Below, one piece after another: positions 7,382-35,485 of a stretch of 42,385 nt of DNA (the first letter of the stretch is position 1; each line of letters opens with the position of its first letter). The position numbers and the translations under genes are program-made. Under the pieces are notes generated by a model. That model was not told the origin of the DNA and did no database searches. It saw only the letters and a list, made by a program, of their open reading frames with translations. Source of the DNA: an uncultured Gammaproteobacteria bacterium (GTDB lineage: Bacteria; Patescibacteriota; Patescibacteriia; UBA2196); NCBI GenBank assembly GCA_964488715.1, contig CAZAVD010000002.1:7093-49477 (forward strand), in the 5' to 3' direction.

Positions 7382-8713
7382 TTGCTCTCTTCTCTGCTAC
7401 GCAGTGGGGTTTTTTTATTTAAAAAAATTAGCCAATTATTTGTGTGGCTAATACACCCAATTAACAAAATATTTTACTTTGTTTTTAAAAAAATAATCCT
7501 GCCAATATATAATTTAGTTTATTTTTTTAAGAAGAAACTTCAATCTGAAAAAGAAAATAGTTTAGATAATAAAATCATTTTACTTTTAGCTAATAAATAT
7601 TTAATTTACACATTGGCTGTTATTTTGTCAGCTGGAATTTTAATTAATAATTTCACAATTTCAGGCGCAGCTGCTGAAGATTTAGGTAAAAAAAGTTTAT
7701 TATACAAAATAGCACAAGGCAGTGAGTTTGAAGAAATTATTGAAGAAAGAAGCGCGATTATTGAAGAAAATATTGATAAAAAATCAAAACCAACAACTTC
7801 TTCTGAAACATCCAAAACCATTAGTTTAAATATTGAAAAAACAACTTTAACTCGCAGTGAAAAACCACGGGAAATTGATACATCAAATTTACAAGAAACA
7901 ACTGTGGCTGAAGGTTTGGCGGCTGAAACAATTTCCAAAACTGGATCCATTACTACTCTGTCAGTACCAAAACCTAAATCTGAAATTACAGAATATATTG
8001 TAGAATCTGGTGATACAATTTCAAACATTGCTAAAAAATTCCAAATTTCAATTAATACAATTTTATGGGCAAACGATTTAAGCGGGTTAAGTATTATTCG
8101 TCCAAATGACAAACTAACTATTCCACCAACCAGCGGTGTAATTCATAAAGTTAAAAAAGGTGATACTATTTCCGCTATTGCTAAGAAATATAACATTGAA
8201 CAAAATGCTATTTTAAATTTTAATCAGTTGGTTAATAATGATCAATTATCAATTGGCCAAGTTTTAATTGTGCCAGGTGGTGAAATTAAACAAATTTACC
8301 GTAGAACAACAAGTGGTTTTGCATCAGTCTTTAAACCATCTTCATCACAAAAAAAAGCTCACGGTTTTATTTGGCCAACTGTGTCACGTCGTATTACTCA
8401 ATATTATCATTGGCGTCATCATGCCCTTGATATTGGTGGTAAAACTGGTTCACCACTTTATGCTTCAATGTCTGGAAAAATTACAAAAGCTGGCTGGGGA
8501 CGCGGTTATGGTTATCATGTTGTTATTGATCATGGTGGTGGCAAAAAAACTCTTTACGCTCATATGTCAAAAATTTATGTTCAACGCGGAGATCAAGTTA
8601 CACAAGGATCCGTTATTGGCGCTTTAGGTTCAACTGGATGGTCAACTGGCCCGCATTTACATTTTGAAATTACAATTAATGGAACCAAAGTAAATCCATT
8701 GAGTTATCTTTAA
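7382..8713 (+). CDS. Secreted LysM-LysM-M23 peptidoglycan endopeptidase
   Basis: Two LysM repeats (YIVESGDTISNIAKKF..., HKVKKGDTISAIAKKY...), M23 motifs HHALDIGG and GPHLHFEI; TTG start from track, exact start uncertain. Confidence 0.85.
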   Translation: MLSSLLRSGVFLFKKISQLFVWLIHPINKIFYFVFKKIILPIYNLVYFFKKKLQSEKENSLDNKIILLLANKYLIYTLAVILSAGILINNFTISGAAAEDLGKKSLLYKIAQGSEFEEIIEERSAIIEENIDKKSKPTTSSETSKTISLNIEKTTLTRSEKPREIDTSNLQETTVAEGLAAETISKTGSITTLSVPKPKSEITEYIVESGDTISNIAKKFQISINTILWANDLSGLSIIRPNDKLTIPPTSGVIHKVKKGDTISAIAKKYNIEQNAILNFNQLVNNDQLSIGQVLIVPGGEIKQIYRRTTSGFASVFKPSSSQKKAHGFIWPTVSRRITQYYHWRHHALDIGGKTGSPLYASMSGKITKAGWGRGYGYHVVIDHGGGKKTLYAHMSKIYVQRGDQVTQGSVIGALGSTGWSTGPHLHFEITINGTKVNPLSYL

Positions 8714-8715
8714 AT

Positions 8716-8762
8716 GGTAGTCATCCTGAGCGACCTTTAGGATCGTTAGGAGCCCAAGGATC
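8716..8762 (+). repeat. Long-form GTCATCC...AAGGATC element
   Basis: GGTAGTCATCCTGAGCGACCTTTAGGATCGTTAGGAGCCCAAGGATC; near-identical to 24527-24572; begins 2 nt after the M23 stop. Confidence 0.9.
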
Positions 8763-9112: not shown

Positions 9113-9150
9113 TGTCGCCAGATAGGAACGATCGTTCCTATCTGGCGACA
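9113..9150. repeat. Perfect 38-bp palindrome, downstream flank of Cas2-like gene
   Basis: TGTCGCCAGATAGGAACGATCGTTCCTATCTGGCGACA. Confidence 0.95.
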
Positions 9151-9174: not shown

Positions 9175-9729
9175 TTATATAACTTTCTTAGCAATAATAA
9201 ACTTTACAAATTGACTTAAATCACATTTATGAACTAAATGTCTGATTAATTTAAAAGATTGTTCTCTATTGGTTTGAAAAACACTATTTTGAAGATAATC
9301 AAAACCTAAACCATAAAGCGATTTTCTAAAAAGGTTTCTTGCTCTTTTTAATCTTTCTGGTACATCAAAAATAACTATATAAATTTCATTACTTTTTTTC
9401 TTTTTAGAACGCTTCATTTCCAGAGGATAAGAAATTAATTTTAACCAACCTTTTTTAGTTAACATTAATCTTTTTTTCTTGTCTTCTATTATAAGATCAC
9501 TTTTTTTTAATTTAGTAATCATTTGACTAATTCTTCTTTTTTCTTTTATTTCTTCTCTTTTTTCTTCATTTTTCACTTGTCTACTTTTATAAAGGTCAAA
9601 CAAATTAGGTCTATAAATATATTCTCTAAAATCAATCAATCCGCCAACTGCTCCGCCTATTATTTGTAAAACTTCTTTGGTTAACGAAGGTTTAAAAAGC
9701 TCTTTTTTATTATTATTTTTTGTTTTCAT
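9175..9729 (-). CDS. wHTH + Cas2-like (PaaX-family-like) protein, paralogue A
   Basis: IYIVIFDVPERLKRARNLFRKSLYGLGFDYLQNSVF resembles the Cas2 / PaaX middle-domain signature; LIIEDKKKRLMLTKKGW is wHTH-like; paralogue at 24714-25232. Confidence 0.6.
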   Translation of the reverse strand: MKTKNNNKKELFKPSLTKEVLQIIGGAVGGLIDFREYIYRPNLFDLYKSRQVKNEEKREEIKEKRRISQMITKLKKSDLIIEDKKKRLMLTKKGWLKLISYPLEMKRSKKKKSNEIYIVIFDVPERLKRARNLFRKSLYGLGFDYLQNSVFQTNREQSFKLIRHLVHKCDLSQFVKFIIAKKVI

Positions 9730-9741
9730 AAACTTTTTTAG

Positions 9742-9779
9742 TGTAGCGTAATAGGAACGATCGTTCCTATTACGCTACA
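9742..9779. repeat. Perfect 38-bp palindrome, upstream flank of Cas2-like gene
   Basis: TGTAGCGTAATAGGAACGATCGTTCCTATTACGCTACA; shares the 20-bp core with 9113-9150. Confidence 0.95.
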
Positions 9780-21674: not shown

Positions 21675-21728
21675 ATTCTGTGGATAGATCTTAGTTTATC
21701 TGTCTCTGGCGAAACTTATCCAAATAAA

Positions 21729-21755
21729 AAATCCTGCTATATGAATAGCAAGATT
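21729..21755. terminator. Bidirectional terminator between convergent gyrA and the island operon
   Basis: AATCCTGCTA-TATGAA-TAGCAAGATT flanked by an A-run and a T-run. Confidence 0.6.
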
Positions 21756-21762
21756 TAAAATT

Positions 21763-21987
21763 TTAGTAAATTTTCCTATTTAATTCTTTGATTTTTTTTC
21801 TCAAACTTTCTCTTGTTGCAAGAGCTACTCCTATTAAAAGCAAGGGGATGCCTACAGCAACTAAAGTTAATACTAGTTCAATATGAACTATTGCAAAAAC
21901 TTCATTACCTAGTTTTGCTACAACATTAGCAAGAACCATCAAAAGTATGCCGAGAAAAAAAGGAAACCGATAATCAATCTGTCGCAT
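21763..21987 (-). CDS. 74-aa two-TM membrane protein
   Basis: Strong SD AAGGAGGA 4 nt before the ATG; two hydrophobic helices. Confidence 0.65.
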   Translation of the reverse strand: MRQIDYRFPFFLGILLMVLANVVAKLGNEVFAIVHIELVLTLVAVGIPLLLIGVALATRESLRKKIKELNRKIY

Positions 21988-22003
21988 TTTTGTCCTCCTT
22001 AAT

Positions 22004-22234
22004 TTATTGAAACGCCTTCCCTAATTTTACTTTGGGAGTTTCTTCTTCTCTGCTTACTTCTTTTTCTTTTTTCTTTTCTTCCTCTTCAGCACTTTGCTGA
22101 AACGCCTTCCCTAATTTTACTTCTGATGGCGTGACCTGCATCCCTGTTTGTTCATAAGAATTTTGCTCAAGCGCCTTGTCACCTAGCTTTTTTAAATGTT
22201 CAAGGTCTTTTCGGGTTTTTTCAATGTTTTTCAT
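22004..22234 (-). CDS. 76-aa charged protein with duplicated VKLGKAFQ motif
   Basis: SD AAGGAGA; 25-nt perfect direct repeat 22008-22032 / 22098-22122. Confidence 0.6.
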   Translation of the reverse strand: MKNIEKTRKDLEHLKKLGDKALEQNSYEQTGMQVTPSEVKLGKAFQQSAEEEEKKKEKEVSREEETPKVKLGKAFQ

Positions 22235-22314
22235 AATTTTTTCTCCTTTTGTTAGTTAAAAAATAGATAAATTTAGTCTAACAAAAATTATCTTTTTTGT
22301 CAACAATAAGTGAA

Positions 22315-23331
22315 TCATTTAATATTTTTTGCAATTTTTATATCTTTAATTTTATACATCCTATTTGCATAAATTGCCTTCATTATCTTATTTGTCACAT
22401 AACCAACAAATGCTAAAGCAAAGAAATAACCCGCGCCAAACCAAGTAAACTCTGGTTTTTGCTCAGTAAATAACCCTATTAAAGTTGCGCCTACCCCCAT
22501 TGAAGTAATTATAGCAAGATTAGTAACTGAACGCTCTGTACTTTTGGCTTGAATATCCGAAAACAAAGTTACAGCTGAATTAACATAATTTTTAGTCATT
22601 CTCCAAAGTTCTTTTATATAACTCAATGTATCAGATAAAGTTTCATATTTAAATTGTAAAACATCTGTAAAATTAGATAATTCTTTATTGTTTTTTATAA
22701 TTGATCCCCGTGTATTAATATAAATGCCCATCTGATTTATTCTAGCTTCTATTAAATTTATTGTTTTGCTGTAACTTTCTATTTTGTCTTTGAGTGTTTC
22801 TACATTTTTGCCTTTAATCTTGCCCTTTTCTTTTACTTCGGCAATTTTTTCCCAAATGGTTCTATGCAAATTAACATACCTATGCATTTGTCCTTTAAAT
22901 TCCCTAAAGAAAATTTGCTCTTGAACAAATTTTTCAATATTGGCTAGTTCTTCGTCAGTATCATTTATAATATACAATTTATTACCTCTATAAATTTCAA
23001 ATGTATTAGTTTTTATTTCAAAATATTTTTCTTGCTTAAAATCCTTTAATATCTTTTCAATACTTTTTTTATCAGCTTTATCAAGAATTACAAAATAAGG
23101 ATAAACGGTTTTAATGTTTGCTAATTCTTTTGGTATTGGCGCTCCTAAACTAAAAATATAACTTAACCCCGGAGAAAGCAATTTTTCGTAATAAAATGTT
23201 AATTCCTCAATATTTTGTTTTATTGTTGAGTCAGGTTTTTTACCTAAAATAATTAAGCCATCTTCATATATTTTAACTTCAATCCCAGTTTGACTAATCA
23301 TTTGGATGTATTCAAAACTTTCTATTTTCAT
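22315..23331 (-). CDS. CorA-like-topology membrane protein (soluble coiled-coil N-domain + 2 C-terminal TM helices); the frame continues upstream through one TAA
   Basis: C-terminus LAIITSMGVGATLIGLFTEQKPEFTWFGAGYFFALAFVGYV parallels the CorA TM1-loop-TM2 layout but lacks GMN; in-frame TAA at 23409-23407 and ATG at 23490. Confidence 0.55.
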   Translation of the reverse strand: MKIESFEYIQMISQTGIEVKIYEDGLIILGKKPDSTIKQNIEELTFYYEKLLSPGLSYIFSLGAPIPKELANIKTVYPYFVILDKADKKSIEKILKDFKQEKYFEIKTNTFEIYRGNKLYIINDTDEELANIEKFVQEQIFFREFKGQMHRYVNLHRTIWEKIAEVKEKGKIKGKNVETLKDKIESYSKTINLIEARINQMGIYINTRGSIIKNNKELSNFTDVLQFKYETLSDTLSYIKELWRMTKNYVNSAVTLFSDIQAKSTERSVTNLAIITSMGVGATLIGLFTEQKPEFTWFGAGYFFALAFVGYVTNKIMKAIYANRMYKIKDIKIAKNIK

Positions 23332-23518
23332 CTCAAGAGATTGAGTTTTTAACTTATTTTGAAGTTCTTTAAGTTTCTTTTTACTTAAATCCAGCGGAGA
23401 ATCTGCTTATTTTAAAAAATCATAAATTTCAGACAAATGAAGTGTTGTCCTTTGAAACCAACTGCCAATGTATATTTTTTGTATGTGCATAAGTTTATTA
23501 TAACATAATTCACATTAA

Positions 23519-23851
23519 TTATGTAATTAAATCATTAATCTCATTTAAAATATCTTCTGGAATAGGAATTTTATCTTGAATTTGGCTTACTCCTGGATAC
23601 CGCCATGCTGTAATTATTTTTTTCTTATTATTATTAGACACCAAATACATCATCCAAATTTCTGTTTTGCTTTTATTTCCAATAGTTTGCATACAAGCCA
23701 CGCATCCTGGAGCAACAGCTTCTTGACATCTATCTGGATTACGCAATACCCGTATTACTCTTTGCGAACTTAAACCATAAAATTTCATTTTTTCAATTGA
23801 ATGTTTTGTCCAAGAAATTTTATTTGTATTTTTAGGTTCTTTAAATTGCAT
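23519..23851 (-). CDS. DUF4258-like small protein (possible RelE-fold toxin)
   Basis: WTKHSIEKMKFYGLSSQRVIRVLRNPD resembles the DUF4258 N-terminal motif (HA.ERM.ERGIS..EV); 1-nt gap to the upstream exonuclease gene. Confidence 0.45.
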   Translation of the reverse strand: MQFKEPKNTNKISWTKHSIEKMKFYGLSSQRVIRVLRNPDRCQEAVAPGCVACMQTIGNKSKTEIWMMYLVSNNNKKKIITAWRYPGVSQIQDKIPIPEDILNEINDLIT

Positions 23852-23852
23852 A

Positions 23853-24518
23853 TTAAAATAAAAAATCTTTCATCCTCTCATACAAATCTTTAGTTGCAAC
23901 AACATCTCTCATACAATATTCAGCTATTTTTTTATATTCTTTATTTTTAAATAAATTATTTACTTCAAGTCCTGAAACACCTTCATCTTTTGGATTTTTT
24001 ATTCCAAATGTTTGGCACAAACTTTCCAAAGAAAGTTTTCTAAATGCTCCATAAAAACTTAATTGATCCATTATATCTAAATGTTCTTTTGTTGAATAGC
24101 GATAAGGCATTAAATTTTTTGTTGGTTTTAAATTATGATAAATTGAGCGGATAATAATAAAAGGGCAATCAAAGCCTCTTCCATTAAAAGAAATTATTTG
24201 TTCAAAAAATCTAATATCTTGCCAAAAACTTTCTAAAATTCCTTTTTCATCTTTAACAATATATTCTATATTATTTTTTGTATAATTTTCTATATTATTT
24301 TTTGGTGCTTGAAAATATACTTTGCCTTGCCCTGAATCTGAATTTAACATTGCAATAGCAACTACTTCTCCGCTAATTGGCAATAAACCAGTGCGTGATA
24401 AAATATCCTCACGCTCTTTTTCATCTTTAGCGTTTTTAATTAAATATTCTTTTATTATTGGATCAAGTTCATCTTTTTCTTGACCACAAGTTTCAATATC
24501 AAATATTAATTTAGGCAT
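23853..24518 (-). CDS. RNase H-fold 3'-5' exonuclease related to the PolB exonuclease domain
   Basis: LIFDIETCG (ExoI DxE), SFNGRGFDCPFI (ExoII), YCMRDVVATKDLY (ExoIII). Confidence 0.75.
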   Translation of the reverse strand: MPKLIFDIETCGQEKDELDPIIKEYLIKNAKDEKEREDILSRTGLLPISGEVVAIAMLNSDSGQGKVYFQAPKNNIENYTKNNIEYIVKDEKGILESFWQDIRFFEQIISFNGRGFDCPFIIIRSIYHNLKPTKNLMPYRYSTKEHLDIMDQLSFYGAFRKLSLESLCQTFGIKNPKDEGVSGLEVNNLFKNKEYKKIAEYCMRDVVATKDLYERMKDFLF

Positions 24519-24526
24519 ATTTTTAA

Positions 24527-24572
24527 GGTAGTCATCCTGAGCGACCTTTAGGATTTTAGGAGCCGAAGGATC
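24527..24572 (+). repeat. Long-form GTCATCC...AAGGATC element
   Basis: GGTAGTCATCCTGAGCGACCTTTAGGATTTTAGGAGCCGAAGGATC; lies 8 nt upstream of the exonuclease ATG on the opposite strand. Confidence 0.9.
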
Positions 24573-24604
24573 TGGTTGAATATTGCTTAGCTTAATTTAA
24601 TTTA

Positions 24605-24633
24605 ATCTTATCTAATTTATCTAATCTTGACAA
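24605..24633 (-). promoter_or_regulatory. Candidate promoter TTGTCA-17-TAAGAT for the exonuclease operon
   Basis: Read on minus strand, about 30 nt downstream of repeat 24662-24696. Confidence 0.4.
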
Positions 24634-24661
24634 GTTCAAATAAATTATTTCTATTTCAAAC

Positions 24662-24696
24662 ATAGACTCTTAACTCACGGCCGTGAGTTAATGACA
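24662..24696. repeat. 35-nt repeat with perfect 20-bp palindromic core, downstream flank of Cas2-like paralogue B
   Basis: ATAGACTCTTAACTCACGGCCGTGAGTTAATGACA; core TAACTCACGGCCGTGAGTTA. Confidence 0.9.
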
Positions 24697-24713
24697 AGTA
24701 ATTTATTAGTAAT

Positions 24714-25232
24714 TTATATTAGGCCAAACCTTTCCTTTAGTTTATCCTCACTACTGATTTTATCAGCCTCAATATACTGAAACCAATCACCTTCTCTAAA
24801 TCCTGGTATAATATCATACAAATAATTTAATACATCATAAGGGAATACCCAAACACTTTTTTGTAATTGATAGAATCCTATATCTATTAAGCTTTTTCTT
24901 AAATTATCTCTAAATTTTCTTTTTGTTTCTGGTATATCAAATATTAGGATGCGCCATTTTTTGTCCCATTTAGCTTTATCAATTTTATTTTTAATAATTA
25001 TTTTTGAAACTTCTTGCTTGCCTTTTTTAGTTAAATCACATCTTTTTTTACTTTTATTGTATTTAATATATTTACCTCTTTCCAAGTTACGATAAGCATA
25101 ATAAGGTATACCGCCAATTGATTGTTTAATATAACCATAAGGATTAATTAAATAAAAAATCAACCCTTCATTTTCATCAATAAAATTTTTTAAAAATTCT
25201 ATTGTTTTTTGACCTAATTTTCTTGTTTTCAT
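24714..25232 (-). CDS. wHTH + Cas2-like (PaaX-family-like) protein, paralogue B
   Basis: WDKKWRILIFDIPETKRKFRDNLRKSLIDIGFYQLQKSVWVFP matches the PaaX-type signature; LERGKYIKYNKSKKRCDLTKKGK is wHTH-like. Confidence 0.65.
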   Translation of the reverse strand: MKTRKLGQKTIEFLKNFIDENEGLIFYLINPYGYIKQSIGGIPYYAYRNLERGKYIKYNKSKKRCDLTKKGKQEVSKIIIKNKIDKAKWDKKWRILIFDIPETKRKFRDNLRKSLIDIGFYQLQKSVWVFPYDVLNYLYDIIPGFREGDWFQYIEADKISSEDKLKERFGLI

Positions 25233-25234
25233 AT

Positions 25235-25269
25235 ATAGACTTTTATCTCACGATCGTGAGTTAATGATA
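25235..25269. repeat. 35-nt repeat with palindromic core, upstream flank of paralogue B
   Basis: ATAGACTTTTATCTCACGATCGTGAGTTAATGATA; 30/35 identical to 24662-24696 in direct orientation; overlapped by a TTGCTT-17-TATCAT promoter on the minus strand. Confidence 0.9.
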
Positions 25270-25314
25270 GCAAATTAAATTTAAAAAAGCAAAAAAATAT
25301 GATAATAAAAAAAT

Positions 25315-25345
25315 TTGACAAAACTTTACTGGGGGGGGGTAGAAT
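25315..25345 (+). promoter_or_regulatory. Promoter TTGACA-N19-TAGAAT with a G9 homopolymer in the spacer
   Basis: TTGACA 25315-25320, G9 25331-25339, TAGAAT 25340-25345; about 88 nt upstream of ATG 25433. Confidence 0.55.
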
Positions 25346-25432
25346 TAAGATATTGATTAAGGGAGTTGTGGATAAAATAAAATATTAAAATAATTAAAAT
25401 TTTAAACTTTTTTAAAATTAAGGAGAAAAATT

Positions 25433-26407
25433 ATGGAAAAAACACCAGATACAAATCCAGCTCACGAAGAGTTTGATTTAGAAATTGAAAATGAAGAAGA
25501 ACTTGAGGAAGCTAAACAAGAAGCTGGAGTTAAAGAAAAAACAGAAAACAATCCGTTAAAAAAAAGAATGAAAAAGAGTCAGCGAGGAGAAGGTTTTGTT
25601 ATTTGTGAAAAACAAGGGAAGTTTGATTATTGGGATGGGGTAAAAGAAAAAATCCAGAAGTTTGCAGATGAGCACAAATGGAATGTTGATAGGTATAAGG
25701 AAGAATATGGAGATATAAAAACTTTTGATAATGAAGCGATCTTATCATCTGTAGAAGAAATTAATAAGAATGAGCAACAAAATTCACGAAAAGCTGGCAT
25801 AATTAGCTTTAATCTTTCAAGGTTTTCATTTGGTGAACAAGAAAAAGGGATGGAACAATTAAAAAAAATGCAACAAAATGATATACAAGAGATTGGAGTT
25901 GTGTTTCTTGAATGCGGTCATTTAGATTGTTATGGGCGTTGCGAAGGACCGTTTTTTGAAGCTTATAAAATGATTGATGATATTGCACAAAAGAATCCAG
26001 ACATTAATTTCAGCTATATTGAGGACATCTATGCAAATAAAGAAGAAATTAAAAAATTGTTTTTAGAAGATTTGAAGGAAAAGATCCCACAAAAAGATTT
26101 GGTTGAAAATATTGCAGAGAAAACAGGAAAGGAAAAAGAAGAAATTGTAGAATTATTGAAGAAATTTTTTTACAAATGTATTTTGTATAAAGATCAGTTG
26201 TCAGACAGAGAGAGGGATGCTTATAAAAAAATTCTAACTGCTAATAATTTTAATGGGGTAGAGCAGGACGATAAAGAACTTTTGTTTTTGTTTTTAATAA
26301 AATTTTTAAATAAAGAGATTGATTATAAAATTTTTATTAATAAATTAATAGAAATTGATTATGAAATGTCGCAGGATTTTCTTAAAAAATTAATTAAGAA
26401 AAATTAA
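25433..26407 (+). CDS. Acidic cytoplasmic hypothetical protein, 324 aa
   Basis: Strong SD AAGGAGA; no signal peptide; Cys cluster ECGHLDCYGRCEG; no recognised family. Confidence 0.7.
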   Translation: MEKTPDTNPAHEEFDLEIENEEELEEAKQEAGVKEKTENNPLKKRMKKSQRGEGFVICEKQGKFDYWDGVKEKIQKFADEHKWNVDRYKEEYGDIKTFDNEAILSSVEEINKNEQQNSRKAGIISFNLSRFSFGEQEKGMEQLKKMQQNDIQEIGVVFLECGHLDCYGRCEGPFFEAYKMIDDIAQKNPDINFSYIEDIYANKEEIKKLFLEDLKEKIPQKDLVENIAEKTGKEKEEIVELLKKFFYKCILYKDQLSDRERDAYKKILTANNFNGVEQDDKELLFLFLIKFLNKEIDYKIFINKLIEIDYEMSQDFLKKLIKKN

Positions 26408-26430
26408 GAGTTAATTTTTAAATAAATTAC

Positions 26431-26460
26431 AAAACCTCGATTGCTCGAGGTTTTTATTTT
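26431..26460 (+). terminator. Rho-independent terminator
   Basis: AAACCTCGA-TTGC-TCGAGGTTT followed by TTATTTT. Confidence 0.8.
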
Positions 26461-26560
26461 GGTTCTTTCTTGGCAAATGCCAGGCACTTGCCAAAAAAAT
26501 GTTGTGGTTGGAAATAAGTATTTAAACACCCATTTAAATAGGTATATTATTTTTTTGATT

Positions 26561-26612
26561 AAAAAGGACAGGTCTAAGACCTGTCCCTACAGAACGAGGC
26601 AATGCCTCGTTC
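26561..26612 (-). terminator. Tandem hairpins downstream of rpoC; the distal one has a T-run
   Basis: Minus strand GAACGAGGCA-T-TGCCTCGTTC, then GGACAGGTC-TTA-GACCTGTCC followed by TTTTTAATC. Confidence 0.65.
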
Positions 26613-26647
26613 CTACAATTAAAAATTTCGAATAGTGGTAATACAAC

Positions 26648-26702
26648 GGGATCCCATCGCCTTGACCCAATCCTAAAAAATCCTATCAAGACTCGGGATG
26701 AC
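26648..26702 (-). repeat. Long-form GTCATCC...GGGATCC element 5 nt after the rpoC stop
   Basis: Minus strand GTCATCCCGAGTCTTGATAGGATTTTTTAGGATTGGGTCAAGGCGATGGGATCC. Confidence 0.8.
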
Positions 26703-26707
26703 AATCT

Positions 26708-34791: not shown

Positions 34792-34857
34792 GTAACTATA
34801 TATTAAAATTTTCTTTATCATCTCTATAATCTCTACTTATTATACAATTTGCTTCCA

Positions 34858-34887
34858 CCTGTCATCCCTGCGAAGGCAGGGATCCAG
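34858..34887 (+). repeat. Short-form hairpin repeat CCTGTCATCC-stem-loop-GGATCCAG
   Basis: CCTGTCATCCCTGCGAAGGCAGGGATCCAG. Confidence 0.9.
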
Positions 34888-34976
34888 TTAATGGATTTAA
34901 ATACCCCAATAATACATCAACTTTCCAAAGATTATCACAGAAACCAGGTTTAATTAATTTTAATAAAGTATAAATA

Positions 34977-35006
34977 CTGGATTCCCGCTTTCGCGGGAAT
35001 GACAGG
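34977..35006 (-). repeat. Short-form hairpin repeat
   Basis: Minus strand CCTGTCATTCCCGCGAAAGCGGGAATCCAG. Confidence 0.9.
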
Positions 35007-35011
35007 AAGAG

Positions 35012-35041
35012 CTGGACTCCTGCCTACGCAGGAGTGACAGG
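35012..35041 (-). repeat. Short-form hairpin repeat, 4 nt after the GIY-YIG stop
   Basis: Minus strand CCTGTCACTCCTGCGTAGGCAGGAGTCCAG. Confidence 0.9.
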
Positions 35042-35045
35042 AAAA

Positions 35046-35345
35046 TCAAAACAATTCATCATACAAATCATCCCAATCAGGATTTTCTTCTTCAATTAAT
35101 TTAATCTTCCATTGTCTTTTCCATTTTTTCATTTGTTTTTCTCTTGTTATTGCATCATTTACATAATAATATGTTTCATAATAAACTAATTTATCTACAT
35201 TATATTCTTTAGTAAATCCTTCAATTTCTTTACTTTTATGTTCTTCCACTCTACATGTCAAATCTGAAGTCATTCCAATGTATAAAGTGCCATTTCTTTT
35301 ACTAGCTAGGATATAGACAAAATAGTATTTATCAAATTTTGCCAT
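35046..35345 (-). CDS. Small stand-alone GIY-YIG nuclease, YhbQ/UPF0213-like
   Basis: YFVYILASKRNGTLYIGMTSDLTCRVEEHK, FTKEYNVDKLVYYE, REKQMKKWKRQWKIKLIEEENPDWDDL. Confidence 0.85.
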   Translation of the reverse strand: MAKFDKYYFVYILASKRNGTLYIGMTSDLTCRVEEHKSKEIEGFTKEYNVDKLVYYETYYYVNDAITREKQMKKWKRQWKIKLIEEENPDWDDLYDELF

Positions 35346-35380
35346 ATATGTGGTGGTTTTAATTATTATTTATTTTAAAT

Positions 35381-35408
35381 GGATCCCTGCCTACGCAGGG
35401 ATGACAGG
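35381..35408 (-). repeat. Short-form hairpin repeat, 35 nt upstream of the GIY-YIG ATG
   Basis: Minus strand CCTGTCATCCCTGCGTAGGCAGGGATCC. Confidence 0.9.
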
Positions 35409-35485
35409 TGGTATAAATTTATTATTTTATAAAGTATTAAATGAATATTATCGCTGAAGTCAGAGACTGGAGCCAACATACACGT

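Follow-up and report, generated by a model that had tools for sequence, protein, structure and literature searches.

Nine consecutive G residues (25331-25339, plus strand; C9 on the minus strand) form the last nine bases of the 19-nt spacer of a candidate promoter upstream of a rare, uncharacterised gene of 324 codons, and this tract is a plausible but unproven candidate for a transcriptional "volume control" by simple sequence repeat. All positions refer to the window, i.e., the whole stretch of 42,385 nucleotides that was analysed. Slipped-strand changes of the G9 tract could alter the length of the spacer and thereby switch the expression of the 324-aa gene in a graded manner, a reading to which we give somewhat less than an even chance. 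Two parts of it go beyond the letters of the DNA: we infer that slippage of the tract is frequent enough to be useful and that the level of expression depends on the length of the spacer.

The G tract and its candidate promoter

The stretch 25315-25345 (plus strand) reads TTGACAAAACTTTACTGGGGGGGGGTAGAAT and can be split into TTGACA, AAACTTTACTGGGGGGGGG and TAGAAT. When the letters were re-read from the window, the hexamers, the 19-nt spacer, the coordinates and the G count of the original prediction proved correct to the base. TTGACA (25315-25320) is a perfect hexamer and the candidate -35 of the 324-aa gene. The candidate -10, TAGAAT (25340-25345), matches the consensus at five of six positions and resembles TAGACT, which emerged from a survey of intergenic TTGACA copies as the candidate -10 of an island promoter at 22303 (minus strand; gene at 22234). 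The spacer between them (25321-25339, plus strand) consists of AAACTTTACT followed by G9, so that the repeat lies between a -35 and a -10 as defined by consensus hexamers alone. With G9 the spacer measures 19 nt, with G8 18 nt and with G7 17 nt, the last giving TTGACA-17-TAGAAT with 11 of 12 consensus positions. The excess over 17 nt is exactly two of the nine G residues, and the earlier statement that the loss of two would yield a 17-nt spacer is arithmetically right.

The candidate promoter is located 87 nt upstream of the ATG of the presumed regulated gene, an acidic ORF of 324 aa (25433-26407, plus strand). This ORF is preceded by the strong Shine-Dalgarno sequence AAGGAG (25420-25425, plus strand), 7 nt before the ATG, and followed by an intrinsic-terminator-like hairpin with a T-run (26431-26454, plus strand). 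On the other side of the tract, an ORF of 172 aa (24714-25232, minus strand) is transcribed divergently, leaving an intergenic gap of 200 nt. The tract had been described as lying in the divergent region between a Cas2-like paralogue and the 324-aa ORF. The divergent gap stands, but the neighbour is better called a PaaX-like winged helix-turn-helix/Cas2-fold regulator than Cas2, as its product matches PaaX_M (Pfam PF20803, E = 1.2e-21) and bears a weak, marginal similarity to true Cas2.

TTGACA is enriched in the intergenic DNA of the window, which holds 10 of its 23 copies while representing 4090 nt, or 9.6% of the window (~4.5-fold enrichment). Most of the other intergenic copies can be read as promoters, with a -10-like hexamer 16-18 nt away (mode 17), for example upstream of rpoB, of a tRNA, of a 388-aa gene and of the island gene at 22234. 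This enrichment, together with the spacing of the -10-like hexamers, suggests that the organism uses canonical sigma-70-type promoters, and it strengthens the promoter reading that had been given to the two hexamers around the tract. Upstream of the 324-aa gene no pair matches better than TTGACA-19-TAGAAT (11 of 12 positions), whose spacer is an outlier in length, and we infer that this pair is the active promoter of the gene. A generic promoter scan was uninformative in such AT-rich DNA (33 sites in the window vs 31.8 in shuffled sequences), and spacers of 19 nt were outside its range.

Searches of the 87-nt leader and the intergenic region returned no Rfam match at E <= 1, and the predicted fold of the 5′ untranslated region had no unusual structure (z = -0.14). 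Two other roles for the tract were considered and rejected. Reiterative transcription initiated within the run, whether read as G or as C, would need hexamers in the right position, and those present are poor on either strand. An intramolecular G-quadruplex was discarded because there is only one G run.

Rarity and placement of the tract

The window contains 29.6% GC and 12.3% G, and G9 is its only G/C run longer than 5 (expectation for independently drawn bases, 2e-4 per window), in agreement with the earlier remark that it is conspicuous in AT-rich sequence. An additional ~8 kb of the same genome, bringing the total surveyed to ~50 kb, contain no G/C run of at least 6. Among 278 kb of related loci no run reaches 9, the longest being one G8 and two G7; the G8, in locus L035, was rejected as a parallel case since it is located in a coding region. 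No second tract comparable to G9 occurs in the ~50 kb, hence nothing points to a set of phase-variable genes spread over the genome.

The position of the tract is clearly non-random. With the tract's own site excluded, a random 9-nt block falls inside a 15-21-nt spacer between a perfect TTGACA and a -10 with at least five of six matches with a probability of 0.11% anywhere in the window, and of 0.70% when the blocks are restricted to intergenic DNA.

Tract length across assemblies

Exact-protein look-ups retrieved eight contigs from ENA, JGI and Logan assemblies, obtained from different samples and with different pipelines, which carry the identical G9 with identical flanks. The length variation expected under switching was not observed, as all eight tract-bearing contigs have G9. 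Each of these contigs is a consensus sequence, and all of them come from a single near-clonal population (0-2 mismatches per 4-7 kb); minority lengths would be invisible in them, so that the comparison has low power. The JGI metagenome collection was also scanned at the DNA level for the exact flanks with a variable gap between them; there was no match, as the collection evidently does not include these contigs.

Contig ends cluster at window positions ~25199-25484 (loci L003-L014, L040 and L046). One contig (L004) starts 2 nt after the tract and another (L012) ends 4 nt after it, and in 12 of the 13 short contigs the intergenic flank is the shorter one. Two contigs of a second strain, L040 (98.95% identity) and L046 (99.75%), end one on each side of the region and leave it uncovered; L040 ends 58 nt upstream of the PaaX-like ATG, short of the tract position. 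In addition, contig L007 (JGI 3300009373) has only two mismatches in 3.8 kb, located 2 and 9 nt after the tract (25341 and 25348). They change TAGAAT to TTGAAT, which destroys the -10, and TTAAG to TTATG; they may reflect sequencing errors after a homopolymer or, if real, a variant in which the -10 is lost. Taken as hints of instability, the contig ends and the L007 mismatches are each explained equally well by poor coverage of an extreme sequence or by strain divergence.

Proposed switch and the divergent PaaX-like gene

The G9 tract is a genuine and intrinsically slippage-prone repeat, and the spacer that contains it belongs to the strongest candidate for a sigma-70-type promoter of the 324-aa gene. 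In the observed state (G9, 19 nt) this promoter is predicted to be weak, because its spacer is two nt longer than the 17 nt typical of the genome. Slipped-strand mispairing at replication would generate sub-populations with G8 (18 nt, intermediate strength) and G7 (17 nt, near-consensus and strong), and the outcome would be a stochastic, heritable, reversible and graded expression of the 324-aa gene. The original prediction, that this gene may be switched on and off in the population, is sustained in part: the promoter, the spacer and the length of the tract fit, but the eight contigs display no length variation.

A candidate promoter of the PaaX-like gene is found on the minus strand (25294-25321), with TTGTCA (25321-25316) and TATTTT (25299-25294) separated by 16 nt and matching the consensus at 9 of 12 positions. 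This -35 and that of the plus strand share 5 nt, with an offset of one base, and C9 lies just upstream of the minus-strand one; within TTTGACAAA a -35-like hexamer can be read in either direction, as TTGACA (plus strand) or as TTGTCA (minus strand). The strength of the PaaX-like promoter may therefore move reciprocally through competition for RNA polymerase, the strengthening of one promoter perhaps weakening the other because their -35 hexamers overlap on opposite strands. An extended proposal, in which a hypermutable G tract in a shared divergent promoter stochastically toggles the population between the orphan Cys-motif protein and the PaaX/Cas2-fold regulator and represents the first contingency locus of the Candidate Phyla Radiation (CPR), giving an ultra-small bacterium of the episymbiont type a means of bet-hedging, is unlikely in our estimate.

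Between the minus-strand promoter and the ATG, the leader of the PaaX-like gene contains the palindrome CTCACGATCGTGAG (25247-25260), present in two copies vs 0.04 expected. The second copy lies at 24674-24687, and both are inside a 61-nt direct repeat that flanks the PaaX-like gene. The copy at 25247-25260 is probably an operator for the PaaX-like regulator.

Each of the two PaaX_M/Cas2-fold genes of the window is flanked by two similar palindromes with CG(AT/GC)CG at their centre. For paralogue A (9175-9729, minus strand) these are AGGAACGATCGTTCCT inside 38-nt palindromes at 9113-9150 and 9742-9779; for paralogue B, the divergent gene discussed here (24714-25232, minus strand), CTCACGNNCGTGAG inside the 61-nt direct repeat at 24643-24703 and 25216-25276. 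Because the palindromes are specific to each pair, they suggest cognate operators or cassette boundaries. A paralogue with 76% identity, found elsewhere in another context and with no tract there, carries AGCGCGATCGCT directly before its ATG. In L040, which encodes a 94%-identical variant of the PaaX-like protein, the segment from the palindrome to the start codon of the PaaX-like gene carries an insertion of 25 nt.

Alternative explanations

The promoter may instead be static and detuned, with a fixed G run, a 19-nt spacer that makes it weak by design or by accident and no adaptive switching, a reading that we regard as possible yet doubtful. The tract would then be a relic of past slippage or would have been acquired horizontally with the island that carries it, and variants would be rare, deleterious or irrelevant. 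The invariance of G9 in eight contigs from several samples and studies is consistent with this reading, as are the singularity of the tract in ~50 kb and its location in a recently acquired accessory island that is absent from relatives. However, G9 is improbable by composition (2e-4 per window) and should decay under AT-biased mutation unless it is maintained. A tract of such length is also expected to slip measurably, and its exact placement in a spacer is unlikely by chance. G/C tracts of at least 7 reach the cut-off for candidate phase-variable repeats, and all tracts of at least 8 vary in C. jejuni NCTC 11168 (PMC6321876). G9 exceeds that cut-off, though the authors of PhasomeIt noted that mutation may be too slow for efficient switching even in tracts that pass their cut-offs (PMC6321876), which favours the static reading.

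It is quite unlikely, although worth weighing, that TTGACA-19-TAGAAT is not an operative promoter at all. The 324-aa gene would then use an AT-rich promoter further downstream, e.g., TTGTGG-17-AATAAT, and TTGACA would serve the minus-strand promoter, with C9 lying ~10-18 nt upstream of the minus-strand -35 and having little effect or only modulating upstream contacts. Consistent with this, the minus-strand promoter has a normal spacer of 16 nt and 9 of 12 matches, TTTGACAAA is -35-like on both strands, the 19-nt spacer is outside the range of the other promoters of the window, and promoter-like matches are no commoner than in shuffled sequences (33 vs 31.8). The downstream pair (25366-25394, 8 of 12 positions) is closer to the 324-aa gene and could drive tract-independent expression of it. 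However, its -35 has only three of six matches, and the plus-strand pair, with 11 of 12, beats any alternative upstream of the gene. Moreover, a G/C run is poor upstream-element sequence, so that a non-operative TTGACA-19-TAGAAT would leave the tract with no reason for its presence.

A promoter of the MerR type, in which a DNA-distorting regulator would realign the -35 and -10 across a fixed 19-nt spacer, is very unlikely. Good hexamers separated by 19-20 nt are the hallmark of promoters of the MerR family and are found here, next to a divergent regulator gene. In contrast to such promoters, the spacer and its surroundings show neither dyad symmetry nor an inverted repeat, and the neighbourhood encodes no member of the MerR family: the adjacent regulator has the PaaX_M/Cas2 fold (PF20803) and none of the island proteins matches MerR. 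The likely operator of the PaaX-like regulator (25247-25260) is outside the promoter.

A gene caller predicted a 29-aa ORF (MIIKKFDKTLLGGGRIKILIKGVVDKIKY; 25299-25388, plus strand) in assembly L001, a call that is probably spurious. Translational phase variation of this ORF, which spans the tract, is highly improbable. Its frames were verified, and the gain or loss of one G truncates it to 14 or 18 aa; however, no Shine-Dalgarno sequence precedes its ATG, unlike that of the 324-aa gene, it overlaps both promoter hexamers, and ORFs of such size are common by chance. Unlike intragenic poly-G in Campylobacter, the tract is not within a bona fide coding frame, the only frame across it being this 29-aa ORF without a ribosome-binding site.

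A sequencing or assembly artefact, which the original prediction had named as a possible refutation, has a negligible probability. Two-colour Illumina chemistry is known to generate spurious poly-G, two contigs break off at the tract and the only two mismatches of L007 lie within 10 nt after it. However, artefactual poly-G sits at the ends of reads or contigs and not internally, whereas G9 is found internally and between identical flanks in eight contigs that come from three assembly sources; the tract is genuine.

Genomic context and relatives

The window represents a Patescibacteria-type chromosome with gyrA, rpoB, rpoC, leuS, ftsH, ligA, a type IV pilus ATPase gene and one tRNA, and the nearest relatives of its rpoC are labelled Patescibacteria, Falkowbacteria and Moranbacteria. 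The interval between gyrA and rpoC (21675-26707) is a strain-specific accessory island of seven ORFs, which include genes for a DEDD/PolB-exo-like nuclease, a DUF4258-like protein and a 338-aa coiled-coil protein in addition to the PaaX-like gene and the orphan 324-aa gene.

An rpoC-anchored genome scan identified two congeners, L015 and L016, as the closest genomes, with 87% and 83% identity, respectively, over the C-terminal third of RpoC. In both, rpoC and gyrA are convergent and only 0.8-3 kb apart, with a different cargo between them. A DUF4258-like gene of 110 aa is all that the interval has in common with the island of the window in L015, whereas L016 shares with it this gene and the DEDD-type exonuclease gene; L016 also contains other small genes there, possibly including a toxin-antitoxin pair. 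Neither congener carries the 172-aa, 324-aa or 338-aa genes or the tract. Since these closest genomes are devoid of the 172-aa and 324-aa genes, the promoter and both genes that it would serve belong to a strain-specific accessory island. Such an accessory location is typical of contingency genes. The comparison of tract length with related genomes, proposed earlier as a check, found the tract absent from L015 and L016 and from upstream of the relatives of the 324-aa gene. As no relative carries the tract, there is no comparative sign of either length variation or conservation.

The 324-aa protein is characterised by a CxxxxCxGxC motif and a helical C-terminal domain. It had no match in Pfam, NCBIfam or PADLOC, and a word-indexed search of 5.8 billion proteins returned only the protein itself. 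A full HMMER pass over 1.84 billion representatives recovered four distant relatives (P0002, P0003, P0004 and P0005), giving a family of five sequences that share the C-x4-C-x-G-x-C motif and the conserved helical C-terminal domain; the longer members (~475 aa) have an additional coiled-coil N-terminal region. The AlphaFold model of the 324-aa protein is weak (pLDDT 60.7), and a Foldseek search of the PDB with this model produced nothing below E = 0.04. A scan of viral contigs for the protein was negative. Two of the relatives have readable loci, both of them in other contexts and with no repeat upstream. The 324-aa product looks cytoplasmic and falls outside the usually phase-variable classes.

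A 457-aa member of the 324-aa cluster (P0108, from L046) was set aside. In L046, 468 nt of unrelated sequence with a higher GC content (positions 1-468 of the contig) are fused in frame to the 324-aa gene at window position 25484, and the contig is probably a chimera joined at this point.

Comparison with known systems and significance

Repeat-driven phase variation is documented mainly in host-adapted pathogens, e.g., Neisseria, Haemophilus, Campylobacter, Helicobacter and Mycoplasma. In Neisseria meningitidis, the promoter spacers of porA and opc contain tracts of poly-G and poly-C, respectively; Sarkari et al. (1994) is among the references of PMC5084427. The length of these tracts sets the length of the spacer and hence a graded promoter strength, and both the variation and its effect on expression of the two surface proteins were demonstrated. 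The present locus similarly has a G/C homopolymer between a -35 and a -10, here candidate hexamers. It differs from porA and opc in that no length variation was seen in the eight contigs, in that the product is uncharacterised and apparently cytoplasmic, and in that the host belongs to the Patescibacteria, a lineage not known for phase variation.

The hifA/hifB fimbrial switch of Haemophilus influenzae involves TA repeats located where two divergent promoters overlap; van Ham et al. (1993) is likewise listed in PMC5084427. The resemblance is partial: here also a repeat is placed in a promoter region common to two divergent genes, with candidate -35 hexamers that overlap by 5 nt. In the hif system, however, the repeat is in both spacers and both genes are turned on or off together, whereas the G9 tract belongs to only one of the two spacers and lies upstream of the second promoter, which would make any coupling reciprocal and indirect.

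Like the genome of Campylobacter jejuni, in which poly-G loci are hypermutable, the genome studied here is AT-rich (~30% GC), and G runs of at least 8 stand out in it. Campylobacter has dozens of tracts per genome, 77% of which are inside ORFs (PMC6321876), in contrast to the single intergenic tract in ~50 kb observed here. The premise of the original prediction, that repeats in promoter spacers drive phase variation, agrees with the literature, in which it is established that repeats can act by altering the spacing of a promoter (PMC5084427).

A full-text literature search retrieved no report of phase variation in Patescibacteria/CPR. If the proposed switch is correct, hypermutable repeats would serve bet-hedging also in ultra-small environmental bacteria, free-living or episymbiotic, and this locus would be a single case that follows a textbook mechanism. 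It would also flag the orphan 324-aa gene as costly to express under some conditions, e.g., during interaction with a host or a phage.

Other repeats were observed in the window. REP-like GC-rich palindromes (TGGAYYCCTGCCTACGCAGGRRTGACAGG) at 34846-34891, 34978-35041 and 35375-35420 bracket a small GIY-YIG ORF (35046-35345, minus strand), and a related repeat pair is found at 8698-8743 and 24509-24554. In addition, the LysM/M23 peptidase gene (7382-8713) differs in length between samples by 42 nt in frame, encoding 409 aa or 423 aa (L047 vs L048 and L049, locus coordinates ~2860-2902), a population-level repeat variation in a cell-wall enzyme.
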